Assembly (NCBI GenBank): GCA_049302075.1
Contig: JBAQLS010000046.1
Coordinates: 148,436 to 212,435 of the forward strand
Length of the DNA stretch: 64,000 nucleotides
Direction of reading: 5' to 3'
Origin: Carboxydocellales bacterium
Lineage (GTDB): Bacteria; Bacillota; GCA-003054495; Carboxydocellales; JAJZTU01
Shown piece after piece: positions 3,613 through 42,738 of this stretch. The notes below the pieces were generated by a model. The model was not told the DNA's origin and made no database searches. It saw nothing but the letters and a program-made list of their open reading frames with translations. The first letter of the stretch is position 1. Every line of letters begins with the position of its first letter. Both the position numbers and the translations under genes were made by a program.

Positions 3613-3614
3613 GC

Positions 3615-26413: not shown

Positions 26414-26810
26414 TAGCTCACCCCTTATCCCGGTGCACAAAAAAAACCGGACAATAATGAGCATAACAGTAAATATCTGTAAAATCAAACATAATTATCC
26501 TGCAAAAAACACAAAAAAAAGCAACCCTCACCAGTTCCCCCTTTTTTCCAAGCCATAGCCTTCCCTTTCAAAAATCGCTTATGAAAAAGCATATCCCAAA
26601 TTTAGATAAAAACGCAACCCCTCTAGCCTATTGTTATAGTCATCAAAATGCCAGCTCAAAACTAATGATAAAACTGTCTCTTAAGGTAGTTATTAAAAAT
26701 TTCTCCAGAAGTTTTCTCACAACCCGTAAAGGTTGTGTTTGCGCTTTTCAACCCTTATGGGTTGTCCTATTATAATTAAATAGTCATGTTCGAACAGTCC
26801 GTCCCCCTCC

Positions 26811-27902
26811 CTAGCCAACTATAACTTTCCTGGCCAGCATATCCACAAAGGCCTCAACTCTAGTTTTCATGCCCACATCAGAGGAATTCTCATCCACCAC
26901 CAGATTTAGCACCGGTATCCCGCAAGTGGCGCTAACTTTAGGCAAAATACCTTTGGCCACAATCTCCGGCATACAGGTCAGGGGCAAAATCTGAATCACC
27001 CCGTCATAACCCTGCGCAGCATAGTTTACCGTATTGCCCACAGAATCCAGTCCGTGTCCCCCCACCGTTGAGCCTAAAAAAGGCCGAGCCGCCCGAAGCA
27101 GACCCTTCCCGTAGCTGGTGCGTTCTAAGCCAATCAGATTAGTGCTTACCCAGTGGGATAGGTAAATTGACCGGGTCACTTCCACCCCCAGCTCACCTAA
27201 AAACTCTTCAATATGGGCATTACATACCGGTTCCAACAGCATATAAATATCCCCTACCAGACCAATCTTGAGGGGCCTGGCTTTATTTTTAGATTGGCCT
27301 TTTTCCGCCTTCAGCAGGTGGTTCAAAGCTCCCAAAGCCTCTGCCCGGCATTGCTCTACATCCCCGCTGGATTTGGCTTCCGCTAAGCTCTCCAGAAACT
27401 CTTGATAAATCCGGCTAGTTGCCCCACGCTCTTGCTCCCATGGCCTAACCAGGTGAGTTTCCCCTTCCACCCCATCCATAGCCTTTAGCATGGACCAGCC
27501 TAAGCGAATAGCCTGTCCCACCTCCGGCCAAGACTTGCCTCCAGCCTGTTGACGCAGGTGGTCAATATTAGCCTTAAAATTGCCCTTTTCCAAAATGAGC
27601 ATCGGGAAATTATAGCCCAAGTCTTGGAGAATAGCCTGATGCAGCCTGCCAAAATAGCCGAACCGGCAAGGCCCGGAGCCTCCCAGCATGACAATGGTAT
27701 CTGCTCCTAGCTCAAAGGCCTGGAGATAGTTGCCTAAATTAATCTTAAAAGGCAGACAAGCTCCCTCCCGGGCATACTTGCTGCCTAAGGCGATAGTTTG
27801 CTGATTAGTCTTGGGGGGGAGAATAACCTCCAACTCAAGTGCTTCAAACATAGCTTTTAAGGCAATGGCCAGATTGCCCATGTGGGGAAAGGTGATTTTC
27901 AT
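26811..27902 (-). CDS. DUF2229 'CoA-substrate-specific enzyme activase' domain protein (solitary paralog of 33746-34843)
   Basis: MKITFPHMGNLAIALKAMFEALELEVILPP...GGSGPCRFGYFGRL is a clear paralog of MKVTFPYMGTSHIAFKHLVNNLGHQALVPP...GGNGPCRAGIYGML. Confidence 0.6.
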   Translation of the reverse strand: MKITFPHMGNLAIALKAMFEALELEVILPPKTNQQTIALGSKYAREGACLPFKINLGNYLQAFELGADTIVMLGGSGPCRFGYFGRLHQAILQDLGYNFPMLILEKGNFKANIDHLRQQAGGKSWPEVGQAIRLGWSMLKAMDGVEGETHLVRPWEQERGATSRIYQEFLESLAEAKSSGDVEQCRAEALGALNHLLKAEKGQSKNKARPLKIGLVGDIYMLLEPVCNAHIEEFLGELGVEVTRSIYLSHWVSTNLIGLERTSYGKGLLRAARPFLGSTVGGHGLDSVGNTVNYAAQGYDGVIQILPLTCMPEIVAKGILPKVSATCGIPVLNLVVDENSSDVGMKTRVEAFVDMLARKVIVG

Positions 27903-27977: not shown

Positions 27978-28020
27978 AATCCAGAAAAAAGAAAACGCCA
28001 AACACTTTTCGTTTGGCGTT
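27978..28020 (-). terminator. Rho-independent terminator at the left edge of the AT-rich island
   Basis: aacgccaaac / gtttggcgtt stem with a T-run on the minus strand (A-run 27981-27990 on +). Confidence 0.6.
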
Positions 28021-28102
28021 CATGATGAATCAGCTACGTTAGTTGCTACCCTGCAGCATTTTCCTGCTGATCTTTTTGCTCATCTTCATCTTATGTAATT
28101 TC

Positions 28103-28492
28103 CTAGGTAAGCTGAAGTTTTTGATGTACAAAATTCATCACATGGTCAGCATCAACAACAGCTTTTTGCATATCGCTTTCTAAAATTTCAATCTCAAAAG
28201 GATATCTTGGCTGTACACCATATGGCGTAAGATTTACACAAGATTGACTTATCTCATCAAAGGTTTCATCAATATCGGCACACATTTTACATATTAATCT
28301 TAAGTCGTGAGTCCTAGGTGGCTCTACATCTTGATGTATAAGATAGCCTTTTAGCACTTTCTCTGCTGCTTGCTCACAGTGATAGCAAATGATTTCTATG
28401 GGAACCGGGCGCATATCTAAGAGATACTTTGCACAGCTGATATCTTTGTTTGCAAAATCAAGCCATTCTTTGACTATGTTGATTTTGTCCAT
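28103..28492 (-). CDS. HEPN-domain protein (toxin component of HEPN/MNT pair)
   Basis: 129 aa, all-helical. AEKVLKGYLIHQDVEPPRTHDLRLI fits the HEPN R-x(4-6)-H region. Overlaps the upstream MNT gene by 35 nt. Confidence 0.8.
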   Translation of the reverse strand: MDKINIVKEWLDFANKDISCAKYLLDMRPVPIEIICYHCEQAAEKVLKGYLIHQDVEPPRTHDLRLICKMCADIDETFDEISQSCVNLTPYGVQPRYPFEIEILESDMQKAVVDADHVMNFVHQKLQLT

Positions 28493-28805
28493 GCAGCATC
28501 ACCCCATCTCTGGCAACTGTTCTTTCGATAGTAGGCAACAGCTTGCGCTGATGAAAATTACTGGCTCTGCTTACGAGGATATCAATTGGCTTCTTTTGTT
28601 CTTTGTAGATGGCACTGCCAATGAGCTGCATGGCTTCAATTGGACGAATGCCGCCATCAGGAATCACTATATAAAGGTCGAAATCACTATCTTCTGAGGG
28701 CGTACCATAAGCATAGGAGCCAAAGAGGTATATCGCATCGGCTTCAACTGTATTCAGAATCGTTTGCTTAATATTTTCCAACTCATTGCTCGTTTGGATA
28801 TTCAT
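28458..28805 (-). CDS. Minimal nucleotidyltransferase (MNT; antitoxin component of HEPN/MNT pair)
   Basis: IYLFGSYAYGTPSEDSDFDLYIVIP is the GS...DxD polymerase-beta-type nucleotidyltransferase motif. Confidence 0.85.
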   Translation of the reverse strand: MNIQTSNELENIKQTILNTVEADAIYLFGSYAYGTPSEDSDFDLYIVIPDGGIRPIEAMQLIGSAIYKEQKKPIDILVSRASNFHQRKLLPTIERTVARDGVMLHGQNQHSQRMA

Positions 28806-29227
28806 ATCATCACCTACTTTATATGCTAATTATATCCATTTCCAAACTTTCGTCAAGCCAAGACGGTTAAGCATTTTGGTTTTTATACTCACGCAATACA
28901 GCCTCATTAGCCCGGAACAGATGGGCAGCAAGTTCTGTGCTGCCCATCTGTTCAAGTATTTTTTTCTTTTTCTCTAAGCCTTTTCGTTTATGTAGTATTG
29001 GAGCCTATCTCAACCATTTTCATGACGTCACGAAAATGGTCTACCATATTGATATTGCTGTTTTCACAGGCTTCCTTGGCTTTTTCTATAACATTATAGA
29101 AATTTTCCCAGCGGGCATATTCAAGAACAGGAGCCAATTCCCTTGCCAGCCAATATTCCTCTCCATATTCATTAAGGTGCTTAATTTCCTCAAAGGTTTT
29201 ATCGCTATACCTCTGAATATTACTCAT
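28806..29227 (-). pseudogene. DinD-like (DNA-damage-inducible protein D) gene, truncated/frameshifted
   Basis: 28988-29227 encodes the DinD N-terminus (FEEIKHLNEYGEEYWLARELAPVLEYARWENFYNVIEKAKEACENS...) and then stops. A DinD-like continuation (LEQMGSTELAAHLFRANEAVLREY) sits in another frame. A 13-bp perfect palindrome lies at 28918-28950. Confidence 0.5.
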
Positions 29228-29329
29228 GATCCCAACTCCTTGAGATACTTGGCCATTTGTGCTTCGACCAAACCTTACTATTTTTTGGTAAATTTTACAT
29301 ACAAAGATTTTAAAAGGTACTGTAGTGAT

Positions 29330-29599
29330 TTACTGCGGTCGGTAACCTATTTGCACTTCCCTAGTCAACTGCTTCCATGTTTTGCTCAGAAGGGTGTTGC
29401 CTTCTCCGCCCAGCAAATGCTTGAATGGATCAGGAAAGCCAGGGTCCCGAGGTTCCTCCAAGATGATTGTCCATCTCAGCCTCCGGAATTTGCTATAGGG
29501 AAAAATATCCCTCAGCTGGTTGGACACATCGTCCATGGTCTTACATCCCTTGGCCAACTCTCGAATCGTCTTGTTTGAATATCTTGCATAAATGATCAC
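29330..29599 (-). CDS. Hypothetical protein, possibly a mobile-element gene fragment
   Basis: 89-aa ORF in the AT-rich island. No confident family assignment. Confidence 0.25.
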   Translation of the reverse strand: MIIYARYSNKTIRELAKGCKTMDDVSNQLRDIFPYSKFRRLRWTIILEEPRDPGFPDPFKHLLGGEGNTLLSKTWKQLTREVQIGYRPQ

Positions 29600-29695
29600 T
29601 CTCCTTAAAGGAAATTATAACCACCTGCACAAAACTCAAAACGTTCTCCAAAATTATTGGCACACCCCTTACCCGTTGTTGCATTAAGCTTCACA

Positions 29696-31456
29696 TTATA
29701 CTTTAAGTAAAAACGATATAACCTTTTTTGCGTTTCGCGCATATATGGCGGTCATTTTTTCTTCAACAATCGTTAGATTTTTGTTTGCATGAAGATAGTA
29801 TTGAACAATTGGCAGTCGATAAGTATTATTATCAAGCACACGTTCCTTATCACTTTTACTGAGATTCATGAATTCCCGTCCGAGCAAAGATAACGACACT
29901 GTTCCCAACTTATTATCTTTATTCAAAACAATGAGATCTAGAAGTGCCATTATTCTTAATTCGTCGATAAGTGATTTTCTTTCTTTTTGATTGGAAATAC
30001 CAACACAGTCTTCAATATGTTTTATGCTAAAAGTTGCGCTTGAACTATCGGCAAAGATTTTTACCAACAAATCGATATAGTGTCCTGTACTATGGTCAGG
30101 AACGATACAAATACTTCTATCAAGTTCCACCATATCTGTATCATTTTGAATTATATTAACAATCTCATCCCTGGTTAAGTTAATGATAAGCTTAGCCAGA
30201 TATTTACCTACTATGCTATCCCTGGTTTCACACTCAGCATTTTTATATTTTAGGCAGTTACAATCAATCTCCTTTTCATAATACATCTTAATTACTTTTT
30301 CCCTGCTCAAATAACCATTAATAATAGCATCCCAAGTCTCCTTTTTTTCCTTGCATTGCGCACATTCCTGCTTGTTGCAGAATCTTCTACCATACCCCAA
30401 ATTAATAGTATATAAATTCTCATTCATCATCTTCAAATCGAAATATTTTTGAGCTATTTCAGGGTGCTCCGCTTCAAAGTCAACCATAGCACGATAAGCC
30501 GAACAAAACGTATCCGGATTAGGATGATAATATTGATTCCTTTCGCAGAATTCTCGGAAGGACATTTTCTTATAAAATTGGGGCTGGTTACACCATCTCG
30601 CAATTTGGATATATATGCCTTTATACCTACTCACTTTGTAAGCCTCATACCGCATTATATATGGCATACATCCAAATTTCATAAGGATGTGAATTCTCTC
30701 AAATACATCAATGATATCTTTCTCGTCTTGAGAATTATATGCACTTAAAATGTACATTTTGGGGTACTTGTTTGAATATCTCTTCCACAACTGCACTTTG
30801 CTAATGATTACATCTTTGTCGCTTAAATAGTCAAACGCAAAGATAACATCACCATAATATTTCACTTGATTAAGGCGGTGCGCTTTGTGCTCAGTGATTA
30901 ACCTTAAATCAATACCCTGTCTAAATTGAAATGGTTTTCCCGTTTCAACTAATTCATCAATAACTTCTTCCCAGTCGGGATAGCCAAGAATATTATCATC
31001 CCAAAGGTAAATTTTGGGGCGTTTTTCATCTAAAAACTCACGAACATATGCATGCCTCTGTACACGGTCGTATTTTTTATTGACACAAAAAACACACTTC
31101 CTAAAACATCCTCTTGTTGTGAAGCCAATTGAGAAATTCAAATAATCCGAATACCGTTGCATATCTTTACCATTTGCAACTTGATCCTCCCTTATCCCCG
31201 ATAAAACAGCCAAACGGCTAAAGGAGGTCTTACTATAGAAAGCCTTGATTTCCAGATGGTAATACTCCAAAAACCTTGATAGCGTTGGCCTCTCATCGGT
31301 ATCCTCCTGGAAGGAGGCCAGCTTGGTTACTAGCCCGGTCAGTCGTCCAAAGGCACTGCGAATGTTTTCCAGGACATACTCAGACGCCTTTTTCTCCAGC
31401 TGGATAAAACAGCCCTTGGGTAGATTTCCAAAGCCCTCTTTCAAGTCTCGACCCAT
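29696..31456 (-). CDS. Large radical SAM protein with uncharacterised ~250-aa Cys-rich C-terminal domain
   Basis: CxxxCxxC (GCFRKCVFC) preceded by TTR, with a DDN motif shortly after. The ORF is open to 31561, but its first 16 codons cross a perfect 14-bp palindrome/terminator. I place the start at the ATG at 31456; starting instead at the ATG at 31162 would put the Cys motif ~18 aa in. Confidence 0.7.
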   Translation of the reverse strand: MGRDLKEGFGNLPKGCFIQLEKKASEYVLENIRSAFGRLTGLVTKLASFQEDTDERPTLSRFLEYYHLEIKAFYSKTSFSRLAVLSGIREDQVANGKDMQRYSDYLNFSIGFTTRGCFRKCVFCVNKKYDRVQRHAYVREFLDEKRPKIYLWDDNILGYPDWEEVIDELVETGKPFQFRQGIDLRLITEHKAHRLNQVKYYGDVIFAFDYLSDKDVIISKVQLWKRYSNKYPKMYILSAYNSQDEKDIIDVFERIHILMKFGCMPYIMRYEAYKVSRYKGIYIQIARWCNQPQFYKKMSFREFCERNQYYHPNPDTFCSAYRAMVDFEAEHPEIAQKYFDLKMMNENLYTINLGYGRRFCNKQECAQCKEKKETWDAIINGYLSREKVIKMYYEKEIDCNCLKYKNAECETRDSIVGKYLAKLIINLTRDEIVNIIQNDTDMVELDRSICIVPDHSTGHYIDLLVKIFADSSSATFSIKHIEDCVGISNQKERKSLIDELRIMALLDLIVLNKDNKLGTVSLSLLGREFMNLSKSDKERVLDNNTYRLPIVQYYLHANKNLTIVEEKMTAIYARNAKKVISFLLKV

Positions 31457-31499
31457 GCTTCGGGTGGTATTAACCAGTACGATGAGATTTTTTGAGAGT

Positions 31500-31545
31500 G
31501 CAACCCCCAAAACACAAGAAATACTCCTTAGGAGCATGCTCCTAA
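31500..31545 (-). terminator. Perfect palindrome plus T-run: terminator of the SPFH gene
   Basis: tactccttaggagc atg gctcctaaggagta (14-bp arms), followed on the minus strand by tttcttgtgtttt. Confidence 0.6.
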
Positions 31546-31579
31546 GGAGTACATCAAACACTGTTTAATTTAAGAAGGT

Positions 31580-32422
31580 CTATCTTGTTTGATTGATATC
31601 AACGAAAGGAGTCGCTCCACCAGTTACAGTTGGGAGTTTACCGTCCCATTTCTCAATGGCTTTCATTTGAGCTTCAATTTGTCTCAAATCAATTAACTCT
31701 TGAGTAACTTCTTGTTTTTGAAGACGCAGAGATTCGGCTTCAGCTTTAGCCTGCTCAATTTTTTGCTGTGCCTCAACTGTGATCCGTTGCAGGTCAAGCT
31801 TTGCTTTTAAGGCGTTTTGTTCAGCGATTTGTTTTTGCTCAATGGCGTTATTGTATTCTTTACTGAACCTAAATTCAGTAATGTTAATTTCATCTAGAGA
31901 CATAAAGTAAGTTGAAAGTTTAGCGGCAAGGGTTTCCTTAACCTTGGAACTGACTTCTGACCGTTTGGAAATCAGTTCTTCAGCGGTGTATTGTGCAGTA
32001 ACTGCTTTAACTGCTTCACCAATTGCAGGAGCCACAATTCGGTCATCATAGGCTAAACCAACATTTTGATAAAGCTTATTGACTTCGTCCGGAACTAGGT
32101 GAAAGTTTACAGCGACCGTTGTGGTAACAATTTGTAAATCCTTGGAAGCAGCAGTTTGATCTGACTGGGATTTTCCAACTCGCACATCAATGGGGATAAC
32201 TTGTTGAATGAACGGAATTTTAAAATGAAATCCTGGACTCATGACAAGGGGTTTCACTGCGCCTAGTTGAAGTACAACTCCTCGTGTCCCTGCTTGAACA
32301 ACAACGACAGAGTTGAAAGCAATAAAGAGTAGAATAAGCCCTACTATGGCAAGGGGAATTAGTATTCTAGCAGCTTTTTCGCTTGGTTTTGGAATCATGT
32401 TAATCACTTTATCTGGATCCAT
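31580..32422 (-). CDS. SPFH/band-7 (prohibitin/stomatin-like) membrane protein
   Basis: N-terminal TM helix and SPFH core (VVVVQAGTRGVVLQLG...), then a C-terminal coiled coil (EQAKAEAESLRLQKQE...). Confidence 0.85.
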   Translation of the reverse strand: MDPDKVINMIPKPSEKAARILIPLAIVGLILLFIAFNSVVVVQAGTRGVVLQLGAVKPLVMSPGFHFKIPFIQQVIPIDVRVGKSQSDQTAASKDLQIVTTTVAVNFHLVPDEVNKLYQNVGLAYDDRIVAPAIGEAVKAVTAQYTAEELISKRSEVSSKVKETLAAKLSTYFMSLDEINITEFRFSKEYNNAIEQKQIAEQNALKAKLDLQRITVEAQQKIEQAKAEAESLRLQKQEVTQELIDLRQIEAQMKAIEKWDGKLPTVTGGATPFVDINQTR

Positions 32423-32807: not shown

Positions 32808-33761
32808 CTAGATGGTCTCCCATTTTCCGCATCTATCCCCCCACCGGGCCAGCAGCTGTTTATCCACCGAAATATTAATTACCTCGCACAGGTTGGAGCA
32901 CCCCTGGCACTCAAAGCTGCTAGCCCGGTAATCCATATCACTTACCGCAAAGCCCTTAAAGGCCGTCTCCTCCTTATGCTTAACCTCTTCTCTGGCTAAC
33001 AAAGCTACTCCGATGGCCCCCATTACATTAAAATGCTCCGGGATGATGATCTCCTTGCCCAACGCCTTCTCAAAAGCCGCCCTAATCCCCTGGTTGGCAG
33101 CCACCCCACCCTGGAACACTACCGGGGCCAAAACCTCCTTGCCTTTCCCCACATTGTTTAAGTAATTCCGCACCAAGGCTTCACACAGCCCGGCAATAAT
33201 ATCTTCCGTATTATGACCCATCTGTTGTTTATGGATCATATCCGACTCGGCAAATACCGAACACCGCCCGGCAATCCGCACCGGGGTTTTGGACTGTAAC
33301 GCCATATCCCCGAATTCCTCAATAGGAATATTCAGCCGGGAGGCCACTTGATCCAGGAATGACCCTGTTCCTGCCGCACATACCGTATTCATGGCAAAAT
33401 CCGTTACCACCCCGTGGCGCAGCAGAATAATCTTGGAATCCTGTCCCCCGATTTCTAGAATAGTCTGGGCCTGGGGCACCAGATGGGTAGCAGCCACCGC
33501 ATGAGCGGTAATTTCATTTTTGACTACATCCGCTCCCACCATTACGCCGGTAAGGTGGCGGGCGCTGCCGGTAGTCCCTACCCCACAAATCTGAAAATCC
33601 GCAGGCAAAAGGTTAGCCATTTCCCCCAGACCCTGTTTCACAGCCATAATGGGCTGGCCTTTAGTGCGGATATAAATACCTTGCAGTACCTTCCCCTGAG
33701 CATCTATCACCACCACATTGGTACTAACTGAGCCTACATCAATTCCTAAATAGCCGTCCAT
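32808..33761 (-). CDS. BadF/BadG/BcrA/BcrD-type ATPase (acyl-CoA dehydratase-activase family)
   Basis: LGIDVGSVSTNVVVID is the ASKHA phosphate-1 motif, GVGTTGS the phosphate-2 motif, plus conserved Cys pairs. 317 aa. Confidence 0.8.
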   Translation of the reverse strand: MDGYLGIDVGSVSTNVVVIDAQGKVLQGIYIRTKGQPIMAVKQGLGEMANLLPADFQICGVGTTGSARHLTGVMVGADVVKNEITAHAVAATHLVPQAQTILEIGGQDSKIILLRHGVVTDFAMNTVCAAGTGSFLDQVASRLNIPIEEFGDMALQSKTPVRIAGRCSVFAESDMIHKQQMGHNTEDIIAGLCEALVRNYLNNVGKGKEVLAPVVFQGGVAANQGIRAAFEKALGKEIIIPEHFNVMGAIGVALLAREEVKHKEETAFKGFAVSDMDYRASSFECQGCSNLCEVINISVDKQLLARWGDRCGKWETI

Positions 33762-34843
33762 CCTGTCCCCTCCTCCTTCCAGCGCCGTTTCTGCTCTAAC
33801 AGGTCCACAAACGCCTCCAAGCGAGTCTGCAGCCCTGCTTTGCCCGTTTGCTCATCCAGGAACACCGTCAGCACCGGTATCCCCAATTCCCGGCTAATTT
33901 TAGGCATCAGGCTTTTGACCACAATTTCCGGAATGCAGGTGAAGGGAGCTAGTTGAATTACCCCATCGTAGCCCTCCTGGGCGTATAATACAGTTTCCCC
34001 TACGCTGTTAATGCCATGACCCCCGATTAGTTGCGCTAAATAGGGTTGGGCCGCAGTTTTAGCATCGATTTTTTTACTGGTGGTATTCTCCCTGGTCCAA
34101 TCCGTCAGGTAAATGGAACGATTAGCGTAGACTCCCATTTCCCCTAAAGTCCTTTCCACATCCAAGTTTATAAAGGGCTCCAACAGCACATAGATTTCAC
34201 CGATAATGCCAATTTTCAACGGCTTCCTGGACTGATCCTGAGGCAACCCCTTCATAAGCTGAATGGTGCTGCTTTTAGCCTTGGCAATCTCTGCCCTGGT
34301 CTGAGCCAAATCAATCATTTCCACACATTGCTTAAATACCTTGGTAGTCTCTCCTCTGTTTTGCTCATAGGGCCTAACCTTATTGGCTAAAATTTCAATT
34401 TCGTCTAGGGCGCAAAGCTTAGCCCAGCTTTCTCGATACACCTTCACAAAGTTCAGCCAGGAAGTCCCCCCCGTCTTTAGCATTCGTCTAACCTTTTTTA
34501 GAAAGCTAAAGGGTTCCTGGAAGATGGATTCAAAAACTATCATTTCGAATTTATAGCCCAGACTTTTTAAAATTCGTTCATGGAGCATCCCATAAATACC
34601 GGCGCGACAGGGTCCATTGCCTCCGGAGGTAATAATTAATTCTGCCCCTAGCTCCAAAGCTTCAATATAACTCCCTAGAATCACCTTAAAAGGAATACAG
34701 GCAAACTCCGGAGCATGTTGGGTTCCATAAGTAAGGGTCCGTTTGCTGGGAGGTGGCGGCACCAAAGCCTGGTGACCCAAGTTGTTAACTAAATGTTTAA
34801 AGGCAATATGGGAGGTCCCCATATATGGAAAGGTTACTTTCAT
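33746..34843 (-). CDS. DUF2229 'CoA-enzyme activase' domain protein (subunit b)
   Basis: Paralog of 26811-27902. Overlaps both neighbouring genes, consistent with translational coupling in an operon. Confidence 0.65.
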   Translation of the reverse strand: MKVTFPYMGTSHIAFKHLVNNLGHQALVPPPPSKRTLTYGTQHAPEFACIPFKVILGSYIEALELGAELIITSGGNGPCRAGIYGMLHERILKSLGYKFEMIVFESIFQEPFSFLKKVRRMLKTGGTSWLNFVKVYRESWAKLCALDEIEILANKVRPYEQNRGETTKVFKQCVEMIDLAQTRAEIAKAKSSTIQLMKGLPQDQSRKPLKIGIIGEIYVLLEPFINLDVERTLGEMGVYANRSIYLTDWTRENTTSKKIDAKTAAQPYLAQLIGGHGINSVGETVLYAQEGYDGVIQLAPFTCIPEIVVKSLMPKISRELGIPVLTVFLDEQTGKAGLQTRLEAFVDLLEQKRRWKEEGTGWTAI

Positions 34844-35826
34844 CGGGCTTCCCTCCTCATCCGTACCATATCTACAAAGGCCTCTATCCGGGTTTGCATC
34901 CCCGCCTCTCCCGAGTGCTCATCTATGGTTATAGTCATAAAGGGGGTTGGTCCCTTTTCCCGGGCTTCCAGCTCGATTAACTTATCCACCATGGCATCCG
35001 GCCCACAGCCAAAAGCGGAAAGGTGAATTATCCCGTCAATATGGGGCTGCTCTATATAGTAGAATGCCGCCCTGATCACCAAATTGCTATAGTGCCAAAA
35101 TAGCGTCTTGGGTAGTTTTTTAGCCTGGCGGCGCAGCTCTCGGGCGGATACCATTTCTGCCGTCCACACCTTTACCCCCATTTTCTCCAAGTATTTTAAC
35201 ATGTTGACACTTACATAGGAATCATAAACCTCATAAGGATAACCAACTACTGCTAGGTTAACCAATCTAGCCTTGGCAATCAGAGGCATTTTCCCAGGGT
35301 TTTGCTCAACCCCGCTTAAGTAATCCAGGGCCTCCTGAGGGCGAAGCTTCCCCAGCAAAAGCTGTTGGTATTTCTTCTGGGCCTTCACCGCTTTATAATA
35401 GGCACCCATCACCAACCACAAGCCTTTACCCAGCTTTCCCCCGATTTCCCGGCACACCCGGAAAAGTTCAAACTTACCCCGTTTTAAGTCTATCCTGGTA
35501 TCAATAATTCCCGGCAGACCTTCTATGGAGTGTTTAATCATATCCGGCAACCCTAAAAATTTAGGGCAAAAGGTAGCCTCCCTAGTCACACTCACCATGC
35601 GCGGGATAAATAAATAGTCTACCTTGTCCTTTAAGGCTAATACATGACCATGAAAAAGCTTTACCGGTACACAGGCATCATTGACCGCTTCAGCTACACC
35701 ACAATCCATAATTTCTTTAGAAGTTGTGGGCGAAGCTACCACTTCAAAACCCAATTCTTCAAAGAAAGTTTTCCATAAGGGGAAATAACTGAAGTAAATC
35801 AGCGTTGTCGGAATTCCGATTCTCAT
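34840..35826 (-). CDS. DUF2229-related 'CoA-enzyme activase' domain protein (subunit a)
   Basis: MRIGIPTTLIYFSYFPLWKTFFEELGFEVV... is a distant relative of the same family. It is the first gene of the three-gene operon. Confidence 0.55.
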   Translation of the reverse strand: MRIGIPTTLIYFSYFPLWKTFFEELGFEVVASPTTSKEIMDCGVAEAVNDACVPVKLFHGHVLALKDKVDYLFIPRMVSVTREATFCPKFLGLPDMIKHSIEGLPGIIDTRIDLKRGKFELFRVCREIGGKLGKGLWLVMGAYYKAVKAQKKYQQLLLGKLRPQEALDYLSGVEQNPGKMPLIAKARLVNLAVVGYPYEVYDSYVSVNMLKYLEKMGVKVWTAEMVSARELRRQAKKLPKTLFWHYSNLVIRAAFYYIEQPHIDGIIHLSAFGCGPDAMVDKLIELEAREKGPTPFMTITIDEHSGEAGMQTRIEAFVDMVRMRREAR

Positions 35827-36029
35827 CCAGCCACTGCTCCTTTTGGGCCTTTATCCCCCAATTTAATCTTACGTACCGCTTAATGTATATTTACGGATTT
35901 AGCTATATTTTATTATTAAATAAAAATAGGTGTCAACCATACATTGCAATACACTAACGTTGCATTAAAATAATTTTGAACAGAGTTAAATTTTTTATCT
36001 CTAATTTGCTCTCATTCACAAATCGTCTA

Positions 36030-37172
36030 TTATTCCTTTACTTCCACACCATCGGCTAATCGATCTGCCCCTTGAACAACAATCAGCTCACCCGCATGCA
36101 AACCCTGGACAATAACTGTTGATTCTTCACTTCTAAGACCTGTATGAACAGCGGTTTTCACTGCTTTACCTTCTTTCACGACCATGACATAATCCTTGTC
36201 GTCCCGTCTCAGAAGCGCAAAATTGGGAATGACTAAAACCGATGGATTTTTCACAGTAATTTTAGCCGTAGCCGTCATCCCTGCTTTTAACACACCCTCC
36301 GGATTATCTACGGCTACTTTTACCGGGAAAAACTGTCCCGTTGGAATGGATATTGGACTGACATAAGAAATTTTTCCCGTAAAGGTTCGGTTTGGAATAG
36401 AATCTACGGTGACTTCTACAGGATTTTCTACCTTAACATAGTTTATATAGCTCTCTGAGAGATTTCCAGTTAAAGCCAGTTGATTTGTTGCTATAATCGT
36501 TGCTACAGGGATGCCGGGGCCAACCGTATCTCCAACAGAAACATTACATGTTACTAAAATTCCATTGATCGGACTCTTGATATCCATTTTTGCTAAATTT
36601 ATGTTGATTGCATTGATTGTTGCTTGAGTTGCATTAAGACCCGCCCCTTTAGCAGCTTCATATTGGAATTTGGCAATATCCCTTTTTAAGGAAATTTGTT
36701 CCATTTGTTGTTGGGAAGTCGCTCCTGACTTATAGAGTTCCTGATATCGAGTATAATCCTTTTCCGAGTTTTCATAATTGATATGGGCCTGTTCTGCCAA
36801 TGCCTGACTATTGGCAAGCCCTGCTTTGGCCTGTTCTAGTTGGTTTAACAGGTCTGTTTTGTCTAAGGAAATAATATTATCTCCCTTTTTAACAAAGGTT
36901 CCTTCCTTAGCTCTTACTGCAATGACTTTTCCCGGAAGTTGGGCACTTAGATTGGACTTTTCCTGAACATCAATGACCCCGGTTAATGCTAAATCTCCGC
37001 CAAAATCCTGTAATTTGACTTCATCCGTTTTTACGAGTACTGGGGCTCCGACAGGGTCAGCGGCAGGTTTCGCTGGAATAGCGCATCCTATAAGAGCCAT
37101 AAATCCTGCTAAGGCTAAAAGGATCAGACTTATTTTTTTTTTATTTAGAACATTTGTGTTCATTTTCAACAT
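36030..37172 (-). CDS. Efflux membrane-fusion (periplasmic adaptor) lipoprotein, HlyD/RND-adaptor family
   Basis: Lipobox (ALIGC), then a coiled-coil hairpin, lipoyl-like and beta-barrel domains. The ORF is open to 37223, but starting at MLKMN avoids overlap. Confidence 0.75.
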   Translation of the reverse strand: MLKMNTNVLNKKKISLILLALAGFMALIGCAIPAKPAADPVGAPVLVKTDEVKLQDFGGDLALTGVIDVQEKSNLSAQLPGKVIAVRAKEGTFVKKGDNIISLDKTDLLNQLEQAKAGLANSQALAEQAHINYENSEKDYTRYQELYKSGATSQQQMEQISLKRDIAKFQYEAAKGAGLNATQATINAININLAKMDIKSPINGILVTCNVSVGDTVGPGIPVATIIATNQLALTGNLSESYINYVKVENPVEVTVDSIPNRTFTGKISYVSPISIPTGQFFPVKVAVDNPEGVLKAGMTATAKITVKNPSVLVIPNFALLRRDDKDYVMVVKEGKAVKTAVHTGLRSEESTVIVQGLHAGELIVVQGADRLADGVEVKE

Positions 37173-37191
37173 AATCCTTATCCTCTTTTCG

Positions 37192-37893
37192 TTATTCTGT
37201 GATATGGATTTTGGCCGTAACACTCGTCCCGGGTAAAAGCCCCAGTTTATTTATTTCCGGAAAGCGTATTTTTAGCGGAATCCGTTGCGTAACTTTGGTA
37301 AAGTTACCATTGGCAGATTGCATCGGTAAAATAGCAAAAGTTGAAAGTGCTGCTTTCCCAAGCTCATCTACCCTTCCCTGAAAGGTTTTTCCGGGTAAGG
37401 CATCAATCTTCAGTTCAACAAGTTGACCGACTTTTACTTTCCCTATTTCAGTTTCATCAATATTCACATCAACAAAGAGATCGCTTGTATCGGCTATCAC
37501 CGCGAGAGGTTGCCCAGTTCCGGCTAATTGCCCTACACGTACGGAAGTCTTAATCACTTGGCCGGAAATTGGTGCGGTAATCTCCGCTTTACTAACCACG
37601 ATGCTTCCTACGGGATTAATCGCACTGGGGTTTACACTCGCTGTACTGGCAATAGCATTTGTATCCTGCCACCCAATCGTTGCTCCGGCTTTAACATATT
37701 CCCCTTCAGAAACATTCCATGATGTTATTTTACCCGAGATGATCGGGCTTACATTTACTGTATAAGCATTAATACGTGCGTCATCCGTAGTAATATAACG
37801 AGACATTTGATACCAATAATAACCTCCAATTCCCCCGCCAATTATTAAGAGTACAATAAGTACCACTGAAATTACGATCTTTTGATTTTTCAT
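37192..37893 (-). CDS. HlyD-family membrane-fusion protein (EmrA-like, short)
   Basis: N-terminal TM anchor (IVISVVLIVLLIIGGGIGG), biotinyl/lipoyl-like half-motifs and a beta-barrel. Confidence 0.7.
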   Translation of the reverse strand: MKNQKIVISVVLIVLLIIGGGIGGYYWYQMSRYITTDDARINAYTVNVSPIISGKITSWNVSEGEYVKAGATIGWQDTNAIASTASVNPSAINPVGSIVVSKAEITAPISGQVIKTSVRVGQLAGTGQPLAVIADTSDLFVDVNIDETEIGKVKVGQLVELKIDALPGKTFQGRVDELGKAALSTFAILPMQSANGNFTKVTQRIPLKIRFPEINKLGLLPGTSVTAKIHITE

Positions 37894-37912
37894 GATTCTT
37901 CTTCCTCATTTC

Positions 37913-39457
37913 TTAACTTTGTTTTTCCCCACGAATCAAAACCATGATAGGCTTTTGAACTAAGAAAAGGGCAGGTAATATACCGATTAAGCCTAAGATC
38001 ATATTGGCGTAGAACGCATCTTGAAACGCTAAAACAGCCGCTTTTTCCTGGGCTATCCTATACAGAGTCAATAAATTAAGCACTTGGGCCTCAGGAGACT
38101 GAAGTCCCAAACCTTGAAATAAGGGAGTTAACGGTTCAAAGGACTGCACAGTATATGACCACGGGGTGGCGGTTGTAGCTAAATTAGCATAATGCCAAGG
38201 AGTCCGCTGCTGAATCAAGCTGGTAAGAATTGCTACGCCTACGGCACTTCCAATTTGACGTACCATATTAAAAAATGCTGACCCCTGATTAACTAATTCA
38301 TTTGGTAGCGAACTATAGGCTAACGTAACAGAAGGCATGATACCGAGACCAAGCCCCACTCCTATAATGAATAAGTACTGTCTAATTGCGCTTATACTTG
38401 TATTGATATCAAGATTAACGAAAAATAATGAGCCGAGCGTCATAATTACAATCCCAACAATGGTTAATATTGATCCTCCAATCCGGGGGAGAAGAACAGC
38501 ACTGACTGGAATGAAGAGAATAATACCCAAAACTTCCGGCAACAGCATCATGCCAGTTTCCATAGCACCTAATCCACTAAGTTGTTGCAAGAATAAAGGC
38601 AGGAGAAAGAGGCTGCCAAATAAACTCATGATAATAAAAAATGTAACGACTAGGGAACTTGAATAAATTCGGTTTTTAAATATTCTTAAGTCCAATATAG
38701 GATCAGTCGAATAGGCTTCCACAAGAAAAAACAAAATTAAACTACCTATCGCAATAAAAAAGAGAAAAACAATATTAAAAGACGTCCAACCTTCGTCGGT
38801 TCCGTTACTTAGAGCTAAGAGCAACGTAGAGAAACCTAATGCCGATAGTACAAAACCCCAAAAATCAAATTTTTTAGCAATCGTTTCAAATTCGTGTAAT
38901 AAAAAATATGATGCGTAGATCGCCAACAAACCGATGGGGAGGTTGATCCAAAAAATCATCCTCCAATTATAAGTCTCGACCAAATATCCACCGATCGTTG
39001 GTCCAATGGCAGGAGCAATCAGTAAAGGAATACCCATCAATCCCATAGCCAATGGGAGTTCTTTTTTAGTAAAGGTTTTCTCAACGATGGACAAAGCCAG
39101 AGGCATAATCATACCTCCACCAACCGCTTGGATAATCCGAAAGAAAATAAGGGTATTAATATTCCAAGCCAATGCAGATAAGATAGAACCGCCCATAAAA
39201 ATAAAGAGACTCAAAAGATATATCTTTTTCATTCCTCTTGTATCCGCCCAATAAGCCGTAATCGGTTCAAAAACACCGATGGTTACCATGTAAGCGGTAA
39301 CAATATACTGAGAAAGACGTATATCTGTCCCAAGTTCCAACATAATATCTGGGATGGCAACGTTAACAATCGTCATATCCATGATATCCATAGATAACCC
39401 TAGAACAACAGCAATTAGGCAAAGCCATTTCCCCCATTTTCCAAACATAATCCTCAC
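37913..39457 (-). CDS. MFS drug:H+ antiporter, DHA2 (EmrB/QacA) family, 14 TMS
   Basis: 514 aa, 14 predicted TM segments, MFS motif A-like loops. Operon with two membrane-fusion proteins. Confidence 0.85.
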   Translation of the reverse strand: MRIMFGKWGKWLCLIAVVLGLSMDIMDMTIVNVAIPDIMLELGTDIRLSQYIVTAYMVTIGVFEPITAYWADTRGMKKIYLLSLFIFMGGSILSALAWNINTLIFFRIIQAVGGGMIMPLALSIVEKTFTKKELPLAMGLMGIPLLIAPAIGPTIGGYLVETYNWRMIFWINLPIGLLAIYASYFLLHEFETIAKKFDFWGFVLSALGFSTLLLALSNGTDEGWTSFNIVFLFFIAIGSLILFFLVEAYSTDPILDLRIFKNRIYSSSLVVTFFIIMSLFGSLFLLPLFLQQLSGLGAMETGMMLLPEVLGIILFIPVSAVLLPRIGGSILTIVGIVIMTLGSLFFVNLDINTSISAIRQYLFIIGVGLGLGIMPSVTLAYSSLPNELVNQGSAFFNMVRQIGSAVGVAILTSLIQQRTPWHYANLATTATPWSYTVQSFEPLTPLFQGLGLQSPEAQVLNLLTLYRIAQEKAAVLAFQDAFYANMILGLIGILPALFLVQKPIMVLIRGEKQS

Positions 39458-39522
39458 CTCCTGGGGAGTATTTGCTTTAAATACCTAAAAGGCCCAAAAA
39501 ATATATAAATCAATTTCTTTAA

Positions 39523-40506
39523 TCATATATTGGATCGTATTAGGGTTGCCCCCCACGTTAATCCTGCTCCGAATCCTAACAATAAAAAAAGATCTCCTTT
39601 CTGTATCTTATGGTTTTCATAGGCTTCCGCTAAAGCGACGGGTATAGAGGCTGAAGACATATTTCCGTATTTTTCAATATTACAGTAAATTTTTTCGGGT
39701 GCTATCTCTAAGCGTTGTGAAACTGATTGTAAAATTCGTTTATTGGCCTGATGAGGGATAATCAAGCTGATTTTGTCGAGATTTACCGAAGACTTATAGA
39801 GAAGTTCCTGTACAGTTTTTTCAAAGATTTTTACGGCGAACTGAAATACAGCACTGCCATTCATAACTATTGTATTGGAATGGGCATTTAATAGCTCATG
39901 GGTAAGAGGCAGCCTGGAGCCTCCGGCCGGTACTTGCAGTAATTCCCATCCTGAACCGTCAGCCCCTAGTGTAGAGTTCAGGATTCCATACCCCTGGGGA
40001 ACTTCTCCGAGGATAAGTGCTCCTGCTCCATCTCCAAACAAGATACTTGTATGGAGATCTTCATCGTTGGTAATTTTTGAATAGATATCGGCACCAATCA
40101 GTAAGATTTTTTTGTAGCGTCCCGAAAGAAGGTAATTTGCAGCAATATCTAATCCATAGATAAAACCACTGCAGGCAGCGGAGACGTCAAAGGCTGCTGC
40201 TTTATAAGCTCCGATCGTGTTCTGAACCAGACAGGCAGTTGAAGGAAAGAGCATATCGGGTGTAGTTGTTGAGACTATAATTAAGTCAATGTCTGAAGGA
40301 GTAAGATTCGCATTATGCAAGGCAGATAATGCGGCTTTTGCAGCTAGGTCTGACGTACTTGCATCACTCCTAGCCTTTCTCCGTTCCTTGATGCCTGTTC
40401 TTTCTTCAATCCAGCTATCAGCTTTATTAAACCGCTGGGCAATTTCTAAATTAGTGATTACTAATTCAGGCAAGTAGTATCCATAACCTAAAATTCCTAT
40501 ACTCAT
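39523..40506 (-). CDS. 3-oxoacyl-ACP synthase III (FabH/KAS III)-like condensing enzyme
   Basis: Cys-His-Asn triad contexts: AACSGF, PHQAN, GNMSSAS. 327 aa. Confidence 0.85.
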   Translation of the reverse strand: MSIGILGYGYYLPELVITNLEIAQRFNKADSWIEERTGIKERRKARSDASTSDLAAKAALSALHNANLTPSDIDLIIVSTTTPDMLFPSTACLVQNTIGAYKAAAFDVSAACSGFIYGLDIAANYLLSGRYKKILLIGADIYSKITNDEDLHTSILFGDGAGALILGEVPQGYGILNSTLGADGSGWELLQVPAGGSRLPLTHELLNAHSNTIVMNGSAVFQFAVKIFEKTVQELLYKSSVNLDKISLIIPHQANKRILQSVSQRLEIAPEKIYCNIEKYGNMSSASIPVALAEAYENHKIQKGDLFLLLGFGAGLTWGATLIRSNI

Positions 40507-40571
40507 TATTGATTAAACAACTCCTTAAAAATAAAGTTTTAAATAATGCACTTAAATTTAGAATTAGAACA

Positions 40572-41042
40572 TCAATTCAAGAATTTTACTCTAAACAAAT
40601 ATCTAATTCTTACAAAAAACTCCTGCATTGTTACTGCTTTATCGGCAAACGAAACTAAAAAGGCTTCATAGCTAGAGGGCCAAAAAATAGTAAGCGGCCA
40701 CATGTGGCTAATAATAATGCCTTTTTCTTTAGAGTTAAGCTCAAAGCAACGCTCGGCATTTTGGCACGCAATCCGGGGATGTCGAAGACCGTGCCAGCGT
40801 GAACCATCGGGACGGGGTAAATGCCAGTCATAAAGGTAAAAATCATGGAGGAGTGCACCACGTGTCGCTGAGCGGACATCAAGTTTTATAATACTATTTA
40901 ATCTACCTGACCAAGAATAAGTTAAATGAGCAACATTAAGTGAGTGTTCCAAAATACTGAATGGATGGTGATGAGTAAAGTTTGCCAGTTGTTGAAATTC
41001 AGGATGCTCAAGAATGTCCTTGATTAAGTCATTAAAATTCAA
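40572..41042 (-). CDS. HD-domain phosphohydrolase
   Basis: H...HD metal motif (LEHSLNVAHL...LLHDFYLYDWH). 156 aa. Confidence 0.65.
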   Translation of the reverse strand: MNFNDLIKDILEHPEFQQLANFTHHHPFSILEHSLNVAHLTYSWSGRLNSIIKLDVRSATRGALLHDFYLYDWHLPRPDGSRWHGLRHPRIACQNAERCFELNSKEKGIIISHMWPLTIFWPSSYEAFLVSFADKAVTMQEFFVRIRYLFRVKFLN

Positions 41043-41060
41043 TGGAATCGTCCTTTCTGG

Positions 41061-41837: not shown

Positions 41838-41925
41838 ACAAGATAAAAAGTCAGTTGCTTTTTACTTTTTATTAGATTAAACTATACCCAAAAGACCCAA
41901 AAAGTATCTATTAAAAAGATATATC

Positions 41926-42660: not shown

Positions 42661-42738
42661 TGTAATACAATGCAATCAGGAATAAAGGATAAGGAGCCTG
42701 AATAATTCGGGCTCCTTATCCCTAGGAAGGGAATTTGT

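Follow-up and report, generated by a model that had tools for sequence, protein, structure and literature searches.

A candidate fully split member of the PlsA-PlsR/Ger family of ether lipid enzymes in a Carboxydocellales bacterium

We analyzed a 64,000-nucleotide stretch of a Carboxydocellales bacterium contig, referred to here as the window, and found an operon that probably (we would put it at about two chances in three) specifies a PlsA-PlsR/Ger family enzyme divided completely into separate subunits. Enzymes of this family are oxygen sensitive and ATP dependent, and they act on membrane glycerophospholipids, where they reduce the acyl ester at sn-1 to a vinyl ether, giving a plasmalogen, to a saturated alkyl ether, or to both. 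The genes for bacterial plasmalogen and alkyl ether synthesis were assigned only in 2021-2022, and the enzyme has so far been studied as one or two large fused proteins, for which there has been no biochemical reconstitution. The four genes of interest in the window and the signals near them are as follows.

34840-35826, minus strand: Red1, 328 amino acids (aa), first gene of the operon and candidate first catalytic subunit
33746-34843, minus strand: Red2, 365 aa, candidate second catalytic subunit; overlaps Red1 by 4 nt
32808-33761, minus strand: Act, 317 aa, candidate ATP-dependent electron-injecting activase; overlaps Red2 by 16 nt
26811-27902, minus strand: Red2', 363 aa, candidate alternative second catalytic subunit with its own ribosome-binding site
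35907-35936, minus strand: candidate sigma-70-type promoter, TTGACA-18-TAAAAT, 11 of 12 positions matched, consensus match only
27993-28021, minus strand: terminator-like hairpin of 12 pairs plus a T-run, between a HEPN gene and Red2', pattern match only

Organization and distribution of the cassette

The initial annotation described a translationally coupled three-gene operon made up of a BadF-type activating ATPase and two DUF2229 proteins. The open reading frames lie exactly where it placed them, all on the minus strand, with overlaps of 4 nt (an ATGA stop/start between Red1 and Red2) and 16 nt. Red2 and Act each have a GGAGG-type ribosome-binding site ahead of the start codon, and Pfam and NCBIfam matches bear out the composition. 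The candidate promoter precedes the Red1 start by about 80 nt, inside a 203-nt intergenic gap; promoter-like sites in the region did not exceed the shuffled expectation in total in the consensus scan. The terminator-like hairpin lies 5' of Red2', suggesting that Red2' forms a separate transcription unit. Ratios of dN/dS against the closest relative (L012) were 0.05 to 0.10 over all four genes (Act, 0.07; Red2', 0.10), and because the cassette also recurs in all 80 of the best-matching loci, we consider all four genes to be real. No further relatives of these proteins were found within the 64-kb window, and there were no Rfam matches at 20 to 42 kb.

At least 513 species-level matches encode a relative, and we inspected the best 80. 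All 80 of these loci, mostly from anaerobic Bacillota, are split, and each carries only one Act gene, as does the window; the split architecture had been considered unusual, a view that does not survive this comparison, as it is the norm in many anaerobic Bacillota. When flanking open reading frames within 6 kb of the 80 loci were clustered, no neighbor family was present at more than 16 of them. The recurrent neighbors (MinC, NUDIX, FUR, DUF3786, DUF1256, and SelA/SelB) reflect lineage synteny and give no functional hint. The cassette, recurring at 80 of 80 loci against at most 16 for any neighbor family, is therefore a self-contained module. No lipid synthesis gene was consistently adjacent among the 80 loci, and the FabH gene of the window (39523-40506) sits in a variable island. 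At least seven relatives have a gene for a TetR-family regulator immediately 5' of Red1, and TetR-type regulators also adjoin plsA of Collinsella and pls of E. faecalis, which we count as shared regulation in support of kinship with PlsA/Ger. Neither the TetR gene before Red1 seen in L008 nor the YtrH-like gene after Act seen in L006 has a counterpart in the window.

Domain architecture, folds, and conserved residues

Red1 gave a full-model match to DUF2229 (PF09989) at 178 bits, and Red2 and Red2' share a pattern of weak N-terminal DUF2229 matches (32.1 bits for Red2 and 39.5 bits for Red2'; cut-off, 29.4). All three end in an HGD-D tail, where the PF06050 matches cover only model positions ~272 to 342 of 342 at 21 to 30 bits. 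A DUF2229 reduction domain followed by an HGD-D-like tail is the D/H pattern described for Ger and PlsA. In fold searches, Red1 and Red2 matched the catalytic subunits of benzoyl-CoA reductase, 2-hydroxyacyl-CoA dehydratase, and the double-cubane-cluster protein (DCCP), which places them in the HgdA/HgdB (BcrB/C, DCCP) fold of the superfamily. The initial annotation had set its reading of these proteins against one in which they were HgdB-like subunits with a known substrate; for the fold, the HgdB-like alternative is correct, and for the substrate it applies by homology only. Act matched BcrAD_BadFG (PF01869) at 160 bits and TIGR00241, the acyl-CoA dehydratase activase family, at 186.5 bits (cut-off, 125.4), and it is an ASKHA-fold ATPase of the BcrAD_BadFG type with the two conserved cluster cysteines. 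Matches of a fused relative in the PDB sequence search include HadI (4eht), HgdC (1hux), and DCCP-R (7yyl_E).

Each Red subunit carries three invariant cysteines (C52, C87, and C274 in Red1; C49, C79, and C303 in Red2), the third of which aligns with a cysteine of the C-terminal motif in DCCP. Act has the HgdC-type cluster cysteines C128 and C167, which are invariant across split Acts, the Act1 and Act2 modules of fused proteins, YjiL, and an Azoarcus activase. Act additionally has the C-terminal motif C285-x2-C288-x3-C292...C311, termed Cys4; the corresponding Act2-specific signature, C-x2-C-x-N-x-C...R-C, was defined in this analysis rather than taken from the literature. Cys4 was found in 22 of 22 aligned split Acts, in the Act2 modules of all 10 Thermodesulfobacteriota/Scalindua-type proteins, and in those of all five PlsA-type proteins (Listeria, Collinsella, Fusobacterium, Haliovirga, and Acetoanaerobium), and the more divergent split cassettes L101 and L103 keep it. 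No Act1 module had it, and neither did E. coli YjiL or the Azoarcus enzyme, the two outside activases in the comparison.

The catalytic-core residues conserved in Red1 and in Red2/PlsR of the family are retained as well. At an overall identity of only 18 to 24%, split, fused, and PlsA-type sequences still have in common W18, C52, P54, K56, H59-G60-H61, C87, Y198, D202, C274, D302-E303, and R313 of Red1 and C49, P51, C79, R80, D147, N226, C303, P305, D330, and R341 of Red2. In all, ~18 positions of Red1 and ~15 of Red2 are identical among split proteins, fused Thermodesulfobacteriota-type proteins, and five PlsA-type genera. At approximately 30 positions where all split Red1 sequences agree, the fused clade consistently has another residue (K89->Y, R76->S, and A271->N, among others), and the substrate or product could therefore differ.

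Relationship to fused PlsA-PlsR and Ger

As the initial annotation had stated, fused forms of more than 1,000 aa exist: the window proteins matched "CoA-substrate-specific enzyme activases" of ~1,400 aa with the domain map Act1, Act2, Red1, and Red2. An artificial Act-Act-Red1-Red2 fusion of the window proteins aligned collinearly with these at 98 to 100% coverage and 35 to 37% identity (804 to 838 bits), and the same architecture has been described for PlsA and Ger. [quoted passage not shown] By homology, this ester would also be the substrate of the split cassette.

Act resembles the Act2 module of the fused proteins most closely (322 to 347 bits, versus 259 to 272 for Act1). The nearest fused relatives belong to Thermodesulfobacteriota, Syntrophaceae, Zixibacteria, and "Ca. 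Scalindua," with identities of 44 to 50% for Act, 29 to 33% for Red1, and 25 to 28% for Red2. Judged by taxonomy alone, this clade would be Ger-like, as Ger-type enzymes and alkyl ether lipids have been reported for these taxa. Against PlsA-type proteins, identities were 22 to 24% for Red1 and 18 to 20% for Red2, and Act scored 160 to 193 bits with Act2, in a comparison set in which Listeria, Collinsella, and Fusobacterium loci present in PLSDB stood in for the verified PlsA/PlsR of C. perfringens, PlsA of E. faecalis, and Ger of T. maritima and D. alkenivorans. A 1,282-aa protein from a Paraclostridium plasmid (L093) was dropped as a PlsA marker because it has neither the Cys4 motif nor a Red2 module. 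In a neighbor-joining (NJ) tree of Act, Act1, and Act2 sequences rooted with YjiL and the Azoarcus activase as outgroups, split Acts were monophyletic (bootstrap, 90) and grouped with Thermodesulfobacteriota-type fused proteins, not with the PlsA type. Bootstrap values for the Act1/Act2 relationships were only 9 to 53, and we therefore make no claim as to whether the split or the fused form is ancestral.

The window cassette and the PlsA-PlsR plasmalogen synthase (CPE1194/1195 in C. perfringens) consist of the same module types: an activase, Red1 (DUF2229), and Red2 (PlsR). With PlsA-type proteins the cassette has in common the Cys4 motif of Act2, the cluster cysteines of the HgdC type, the cysteine triads, and many core residues, and each system is found in anaerobes whose lipids include plasmalogens. 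Red1 of the window is the counterpart of the C-terminal Red1 module of C. perfringens-type PlsA, and Red2 is the counterpart of PlsR and of the Red2 module in fused proteins, including the single-gene PlsA of Enterococcus, Listeria, Lactococcus, and Bifidobacterium. The two systems differ in that all window modules are separate genes, with one activase gene in place of tandem Act1-Act2 and with an extra Red2' subunit; gene order in the window is Red1-Red2-Act, compared to Act-Act-Red1-Red2 in fused proteins. Three genes with one Act do not correspond to Act1-Act2-Red1-Red2 on a single polypeptide or to PlsA plus PlsR, and the cassette is thus an architectural variant of PlsA-PlsR/Ger and not a described form. 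Ger ("modified PlsA"; Tmari_0479 of T. maritima and SHJ90043 of D. alkenivorans) is a single BB-D-H polypeptide producing saturated alkyl ethers, whereas the window modules are split, and organisms with the split cassette, Moorella among them, have mainly vinyl ether signatures (dimethyl acetals [DMAs]), unlike the product of Ger.

A link to lipids comes from Moorella (Neomoorella) carbonis ACPs, which carries a split cassette (L042) and whose published fatty acids include 23.1% iso-C15:0 DMA and 8.9% iso-C17:0 DMA (~32% together), which are plasmalogen derived; this link joins the cassette locus to a published fatty acid profile, which a separate fused plsA elsewhere in the genome might also explain. 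M. thermoacetica yields DMAs as well. No usable literature on DMAs or plasmalogens was found for Desulfofundulus, Thermincola/Carboxydocella, or Capillibacterium. A 2026 AEM study reported, for Bacillota that produce plasmalogens, PlsA-like homologs containing just one activation domain, alongside activation-less PlsA homologs of "unclear role," and noted that homologs with one B domain correlate with plasmalogens and those with two B domains with alkyl ethers. Separate Act, Red1, and Red2 genes fit the single-activation-domain and activation-less homologs of that survey. According to the same study, PlsA and Ger are indistinguishable by sequence, so the product of the split cassette could be either a vinyl ether or an alkyl ether.

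Proposed mechanism

With only one activase gene, Act is presumed to form a homodimer like HgdC, and the activator would then contain two Cys4 modules. In this dimer, C128 and C167 would bridge a [4Fe-4S] cluster. An electron taken up from a low-potential donor would then be injected into the catalytic component at the expense of ATP hydrolysis. Red1 and Red2 are predicted to form an HgdA/HgdB-like heterodimer, with the invariant cysteine triad of each subunit holding a cluster. There, two one-electron reductions of the ester carbonyl of the lipid, together with dehydration, might yield the vinyl ether, and Red2' could serve as an alternative partner of Red1 to give a second isoform.

Alternative substrates and related systems

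The split cassette resembles the classical three-gene organization of the HgdABC/BcrABCD superfamily: HgdABC, HadBC-HadI, and BcrABCD/BzdNOPQ also pair a stand-alone activator ATPase of the ASKHA fold, bridged by a [4Fe-4S] cluster, with a heterodimer of two paralogous Fe-S subunits, a plan that the window proteins are predicted to follow. The window system could be another member of this superfamily of ATP-dependent radical/low-potential reductases, with the same subunit logic, that acts on something other than a membrane lipid, its likeness to PlsA/Ger reflecting shared ancestry. Superfamily substrates are diverse (acyl-CoA, aromatic CoA esters, and small molecules in the case of DCCP), the Red proteins are only 18 to 24% identical to the PlsA type with many clade-specific substitutions at otherwise invariant positions, no lipid metabolism neighbor is conserved, and the divergent cassettes L101 and L103 adjoin sporulation genes (spoIIA, sigF, and spoVA). 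We nevertheless regard this as unlikely, if worth keeping in view, given that the split clade has the Act2 Cys4 motif and the invariant Red1/Red2 cores in common with both fused PlsA-type and Thermodesulfobacteriota-type proteins, that cassette carriers make plasmalogens, and that a correlation between one activation domain and plasmalogens has been published.

Two further readings place the genes in other systems of the superfamily. A classical 2-hydroxyacyl-CoA dehydratase of the HgdAB/HadBC/FldBC type with its activator, serving amino acid fermentation, would account for the name "2-hydroxyglutaryl-CoA dehydratase" that NCBI gives some homologs, for the partial HGD-D match, and for HadB and HadC among the top fold matches, but this already disfavored reading is hardly credible. 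The HGD-D match is confined to the last 60 to 70 residues of the 342-position model, the PDB sequence search reaches HadC only at an E value of 0.22, and the Red subunits, defined instead by DUF2229, are shorter (328 and 365 aa versus 373 to 438 aa). CoA-transferase, 2-hydroxyacid dehydrogenase, and acyl-CoA dehydrogenase genes were neither present in the window nor recurrent at the 80 loci; the cassette thus has no CoA metabolism neighbors, unlike dehydratase and benzoyl-CoA reductase systems and in contrast to the Azoarcus HAD-like cluster, which has CaiB and ACAD neighbors. The Cys4 extension of the PlsA family, a C-terminal module that sets Act apart from HgdC-type activators, is missing from YjiL and the Azoarcus activase.

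A DCCP (YjiM type) with its own reductase partner, reducing a small molecule, is very improbable. DCCP/DCCP-R of C. hydrogenoformans and YjiM/YjiL of E. coli gave the best or near-best structural match to the Red proteins, DCCP was their only significant PDB sequence-profile match, and it too is a stoichiometric ATP-coupled reductase and not a redox-neutral dehydratase. However, that sequence match is restricted to ~65 C-terminal residues, and DCCP lacks a DUF2229 domain, and its reductase lacks a Cys4 tail. DCCP is a homodimer from one gene (the yjiM-yjiL pair), whereas the cassette has two distinct, conserved Red genes. The Red subunits have only three invariant cysteines each, fewer than the cluster cysteines of DCCP, whose [8Fe-9S] double cubane reportedly needs about six.

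A paralogous Red2-type subunit

The fourth gene is the Red2-like paralog that had been noted at 26811-27902, and it is a paralog of Red2 only: Red2' is 43% identical to Red2 over its full length, compared to ~27% to Red1 over only ~170 residues. It was described as unlinked, but in the closest relatives (L006, L008, and L012) its position downstream of the operon is conserved, at a distance of 3.5 to 5 kb, and at four other loci (L013, L014, L025, and L073) a gene of the Red2' clade directly adjoins the other three as the fourth of the operon. In the window, Red2' is 4.9 kb from the operon across a variable island, directly upstream of two PBP1A genes. The Red2' clade has 30 members (NJ bootstrap, 99), and Red2' keeps 59 of 62 Red2-invariant positions, including the cysteine triad. 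A Red2'-clade gene is the sole Red2-type gene in the Red1-Act-Red2' cassettes of L034 and L068, and in Thermincola (L102) one stands alone beside a ferredoxin gene. A 335-aa gene after the Calderihabitans cassette proved unrelated to Red2', and a deeper subdivision of Red2 into "A" and "B" cassette types had no bootstrap support.

Red2' might be an interchangeable subunit that replaces Red2 on Red1 and so switches the ether lipid product or its regiochemistry, an idea that draws support from the robust clade, purifying selection, the 59 of 62 retained positions, the cassettes with Red2' as sole Red2-type gene, and the solitary Thermincola gene but that we still consider quite doubtful. The switch would be between vinyl ether and saturated alkyl ether or between sn-1 and sn-2, the latter leading to diethers.

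Implications

If the cassette is indeed a split PlsA-PlsR/Ger enzyme, it would explain the DMAs and ether lipids of Moorella, Desulfotomaculum-type organisms, Syntrophomonas, Thermincola, Natranaerobius, and other anaerobic Bacillota, which chemotaxonomic studies record and which serve as environmental biomarkers. It would also correct genome screens that accept only matches with long query coverage or that tally "activation domains" protein by protein, because such screens miss or misread split systems. The split form would be convenient experimentally, with an activator and a reductase heterodimer that could be purified separately, as in 2-hydroxyacyl-CoA dehydratase and benzoyl-CoA reductase systems, and it would aid mechanistic studies, among them studies of what the Cys4 module, a feature of the activase not remarked on before, contributes. 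Whether a system yields vinyl ethers, alkyl ethers, or diethers is, according to the current literature, not answerable from sequence, and the Red2' lineage offers a concrete candidate determinant of this output. Were the exchange of Red2 for Red2' to hold, it would explain the activation-less PlsA homologs of the literature and would mean that anaerobic Bacillota tune their membrane ether lipids by swapping a subunit.

Operon genes and sequence relationships

Three overlapping open reading frames on the minus strand, found exactly where the initial annotation had placed them, encode two DUF2229 catalytic-subunit proteins (Red1 and Red2) and a BadF-type activase (Act). A Red2 paralog, Red2', is encoded in the same window.

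34840-35826, minus strand: Red1, 328 aa; full DUF2229 domain and an HGD-D C-terminal tail in Pfam
33746-34843, minus strand: Red2, 365 aa; weak N-terminal DUF2229 match and an HGD-D C-terminal tail in Pfam
32808-33761, minus strand: Act, 317 aa; BcrAD_BadFG and TIGR00241 "acyl-CoA dehydratase activase"
26811-27902: Red2', 363 aa

Red1 overlaps Red2 by 4 nt (ATGA), and Red2 overlaps Act by 16 nt; each downstream start has a GGAGG-type ribosome-binding site in front of it. Red2' aligns with Red2 over its full length at 43% identity, and its relationship to Red1 is only remote. Compared with the closest relative, all four genes have dN/dS values of 0.05 to 0.10, which are approximate because dS is near saturation and indicate strong purifying selection. 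Among the matches listed, the closest relatives are uncultured Bacillota, including the MAG SKS3.bin89, whose Red1 is 82% identical in the scan and approximately 86% identical by global alignment; the Red2' of a "Carboxydocellales bacterium" MAG is 93% identical.

Catalytic subunits and activase

AlphaFold2 models of the Red proteins, built with 61 to 62 homologs as input, are confident (pLDDT of 91.4 and 91.9; pTM of 0.90). Sequence comparison by itself picks up no more than the last ~65 residues of these proteins, and for this reason Pfam reports just an HGD-D tail. The operon had been described as lacking any dehydratase or reductase partner for its activase; that partner is Red1 together with Red2. 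Exactly three cysteines are invariant in each Red protein: C52, C87, and C274 in Red1 (121 split and 60 fused sequences) and C49, C79, and C303 in Red2 (116 split, 6 paralog-type, and 60 fused sequences), the third being C310 in Red2'.

Act carries two cysteines, C128 and C167, that are invariant across all activases aligned, YjiL of Escherichia coli and an Azoarcus protein among them. Its C terminus (residues 285 to 311) holds a further four-cysteine module, C-x2-C-x-N-x-C...R-C (C285, C288, C292, and C311), with the fuller form C-x2-C-x-N-x-C...G-x-R-C. This Cys4 motif is present in 22/22 split Act proteins aligned and in the second activase module (Act2) of every fused protein examined, of both the Thermodesulfobacteriota type and the plasmalogen synthase (PlsA) type; no first activase module (Act1) has it, and neither do E. 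coli YjiL and the Azoarcus enzyme, the two activases from outside used for comparison. The motif serves as a family signature and identifies the single split Act as Act2-like. The four cysteines may be ligands of a second Fe-S cluster or of zinc. We found no mention of the motif in the part of the PlsA/Ger-related literature that was covered.

Similarity to fused ether-lipid enzymes

A synthetic Act-Act-Red1-Red2 concatenation is collinear with ~1,400-aa "CoA-substrate-specific enzyme activases" of Thermodesulfobacteriota, Syntrophaceae, Zixibacteria, and "Ca. Scalindua" (98 to 100% coverage, 35 to 37% identity, 804 to 838 bits), in which Act1 spans residues 1 to 310, Act2 ~319 to 636, Red1 ~670 to 986, and Red2 ~1000 to 1400. 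A function is now known for this fused architecture. [quoted passage not shown] The published work describes the modules as paired domains, two for activation and two for reduction/dehydration.

As PlsA-type markers we used PLSDB loci from Listeria monocytogenes (single-gene PlsA, 1,475 aa), Collinsella aerofaciens (single-gene PlsA, 1,479 aa, followed by a TetR gene), and Fusobacterium animalis (a two-gene form with a 975-aa PlsA and a 404-aa PlsR). Their identity to the window proteins is low (22 to 24% for Red1 and 18 to 20% for Red2), whereas Thermodesulfobacteriota-type fused proteins are closer (29 to 33% for Red1, 25 to 28% for Red2, and 44 to 50% for Act2). A core of residues is identical across the split, Thermodesulfobacteriota-type fused, and PlsA-type groups, comprising W18, G43, C52, P54, K56, H59-G60-H61, P75, C87, Y198, D202, F272, C274, G275, D302-E303, and R313 in Red1 and G40, C49, P51, G57, C79, R80, D147, G215, N226, G275, P300, C303, P305, D330, and R341 in Red2/PlsR.

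PLSDB also holds one more split cassette, in Monoglobus pectinilyticus. On the Paraclostridium bifermentans plasmid pHD0315_2-2 (locus L093, 2992-6840), a 1,282-aa protein has Act1-Act2-Red1-like modules without the Cys4 motif or a recognizable Red2 module, and its gene adjoins those of an ABC transporter and a Crp/Fnr regulator. The protein may represent a different branch of the family.

Distribution and gene order

A scan of GTDB species representatives returned at least 513 loci with a relative, of which the best 80 were inspected. All 80 carry the split cassette and stand-alone Red1 proteins are abundant, so the split architecture, originally thought unusual, is common.

Gene order in the best 80 loci (L-numbers are loci in other genomes or plasmids)
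Red1-Red2-Act: 59
With an additional Red2': 5
Red1-Act-Red2: 4 (L063, L074, L077, L079)
Red1-Act-Red2': 2 (L034, L068), both lacking an ordinary Red2 within 10 kb
Remainder: interrupted by contig ends; one frameshifted

Hosts are mostly strictly anaerobic Bacillota, including Moorella/Neomoorella, Desulfofundulus, Desulfotomaculum, Pelotomaculum, Syntrophomonas, Thermacetogenium, Halanaerobiales, Limnochordia, Dethiobacter, Calderihabitans, and Natranaerobius. Flanking genes depend on the lineage, with no neighbor family occurring in more than 16 of the 80 loci, which marks the cassette as a self-contained unit. A TetR-family gene lies directly 5' of Red1 in at least seven loci, echoing the TetR genes that adjoin Enterococcus faecalis pls and Collinsella plsA; the window has no TetR gene at this position.

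More divergent cassettes in Carboxydothermus ferrireducens-like and Desulfoscipio genomes (L101, 6049-9074, and L103, 5977-9074) are 39 to 44% identical in Red1 and 61 to 67% in Act and retain the Cys4 motif. Both immediately follow sporulation genes (spoIIAA, spoIIAB, sigF, and spoVA or gerA), a placement that hints at a possible tie to sporulation-stage membrane remodeling.

The Red2' lineage

In a neighbor-joining tree of 214 Red2-type sequences, Red2' falls within a 30-member clade with a bootstrap value of 99. It is neither a recent nor a stray duplicate, and it retains 59 of the 62 Red2-invariant positions, including the cysteine triad. Its description as an unlinked paralog does not hold: members of the clade form the fourth gene of the operon in four loci.

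Arrangements of Red2'
Fourth in the operon, immediately following Act: L013, L014, L025, L073
Sole Red2-type gene in Red1-Act-Red2': L034, L068
3.5 to 5 kb downstream of the operon: L006, L008, L012 (the closest relatives of the window)
Solitary, with a 57-aa 2x[4Fe-4S] ferredoxin gene immediately before it: Thermincola ferriacetica (L102, 5962-7364), with no Red1 or Act in the 6- to 7-kb flank on either side

The window and its relatives share a backbone of GT4, GerE, two DUF881 genes, the operon, Red2', two PBP1A genes, and, further on, PHP and BsuPI, and variable islands flank the operon on both sides. Most simply, Red2' would once have been the fourth operon gene, later parted from the operon by insertions. 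At present a separate ribosome-binding site serves Red2', and a terminator-like hairpin lies just upstream of the gene.

The downstream island, between the operon and Red2' (~28000-32422; GC content of 0.38 to 0.39), contains an MNT/HEPN toxin-antitoxin-like pair (nucleotidyltransferase, 28458-28805, matching the PADLOC candidate PDC-S09; HEPN, 28103-28492), an SPFH/Band-7 protein (31580-32422), and 213-aa and 621-aa open reading frames without Pfam matches, the latter weakly matching a type IV methyl-directed restriction enzyme in PADLOC (E = 3e-5). Other genes take its place in L006 and L008. The upstream island (36030-44412; GC content of 0.37 to 0.41) encodes EmrAB-type efflux (two HlyD-type adaptors and an EmrB-type MFS pump), FabH, an HD-domain protein, a CmpB-like protein, a MarR/iron-repressor-like regulator, and an ABC1 atypical kinase. 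L008 has a comparable efflux set on the opposite side of the operon.

Host and wider window

The window contains the start of a dcw cell-division/cell-wall cluster (1070-9574; MraZ, MraW, FtsL/DivIC, a PASTA-containing PBP, two Mur ligases, and MraY), and the putative ether-lipid cassette therefore has many cell-envelope genes around it. A PBP1A-family protein (23921-26488) has a C-terminal extension (residues ~702 to 823) weakly matching collagen-like Gly-rich adhesin models (NF038329) and is followed by a second class A PBP (21608-23728). Consecutive genes for a GT4 glycosyltransferase, a PIG-L deacetylase, and a BshC-family protein (47430-51051) look like a bacillithiol (bshA-bshB-bshC) biosynthesis cluster. 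A 655-aa Ni-CODH/prismane-family protein (54762-56729), together with best matches to "Carboxydocellales" MAGs, suggests an anaerobic carboxydotroph; with the bacillithiol-synthesis-like genes and the dcw start, it fits an anaerobic carboxydotrophic Firmicute.

Proposed function

The best-supported reading, combining homology with a phenotypic link, is that the cassette is a split equivalent of PlsA-PlsR/Ger. An Act homodimer would feed low-potential electrons, driven by ATP, into a Red1/Red2 heterodimer, which would reduce and dehydrate the sn-1 ester of membrane glycerophospholipids, following the two-electron reduction and dehydration proposed for PlsAR. The phenotypic link is that the cassette is present in the complete genome of Moorella (Neomoorella) carbonis ACPs (L042), a strain whose fatty acids include 23.1% iso-C15:0 dimethyl acetal (DMA) and 8.9% iso-C17:0 DMA. 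DMAs are methanolysis products of plasmalogens and are also found in M. thermoacetica. A 2026 Bacillota study reports that plasmalogen producers have PlsA-like homologs with one activation domain, alongside activation-less homologs whose role it calls unclear, and that PlsA and Ger are indistinguishable by sequence. We infer that these hits correspond to Act, Red1, Red2, and Red2', each a subunit of a single enzyme.

The main rival is that the same enzyme logic acts on a different substrate. The low identity, together with the many clade-specific replacements at sites that are invariant elsewhere, gives this explanation some weight, but we regard it as unlikely. The features tested speak against a classical 2-hydroxyacyl-CoA dehydratase and also against a reductase of the double-cubane cluster protein type, and both are disfavored. 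The earlier interpretation is partly superseded by the 2021 to 2026 literature and partly wrong, in the missing partner and the supposed rarity.

What remains new is the activase's Cys4 signature, Red2' as a subunit lineage of its own, and the recognition that the Red1-Red2-Act cassette, fully split and translationally coupled and with only one activase, of the Act2 type, is probably a widespread form of the ether-lipid reductase family.
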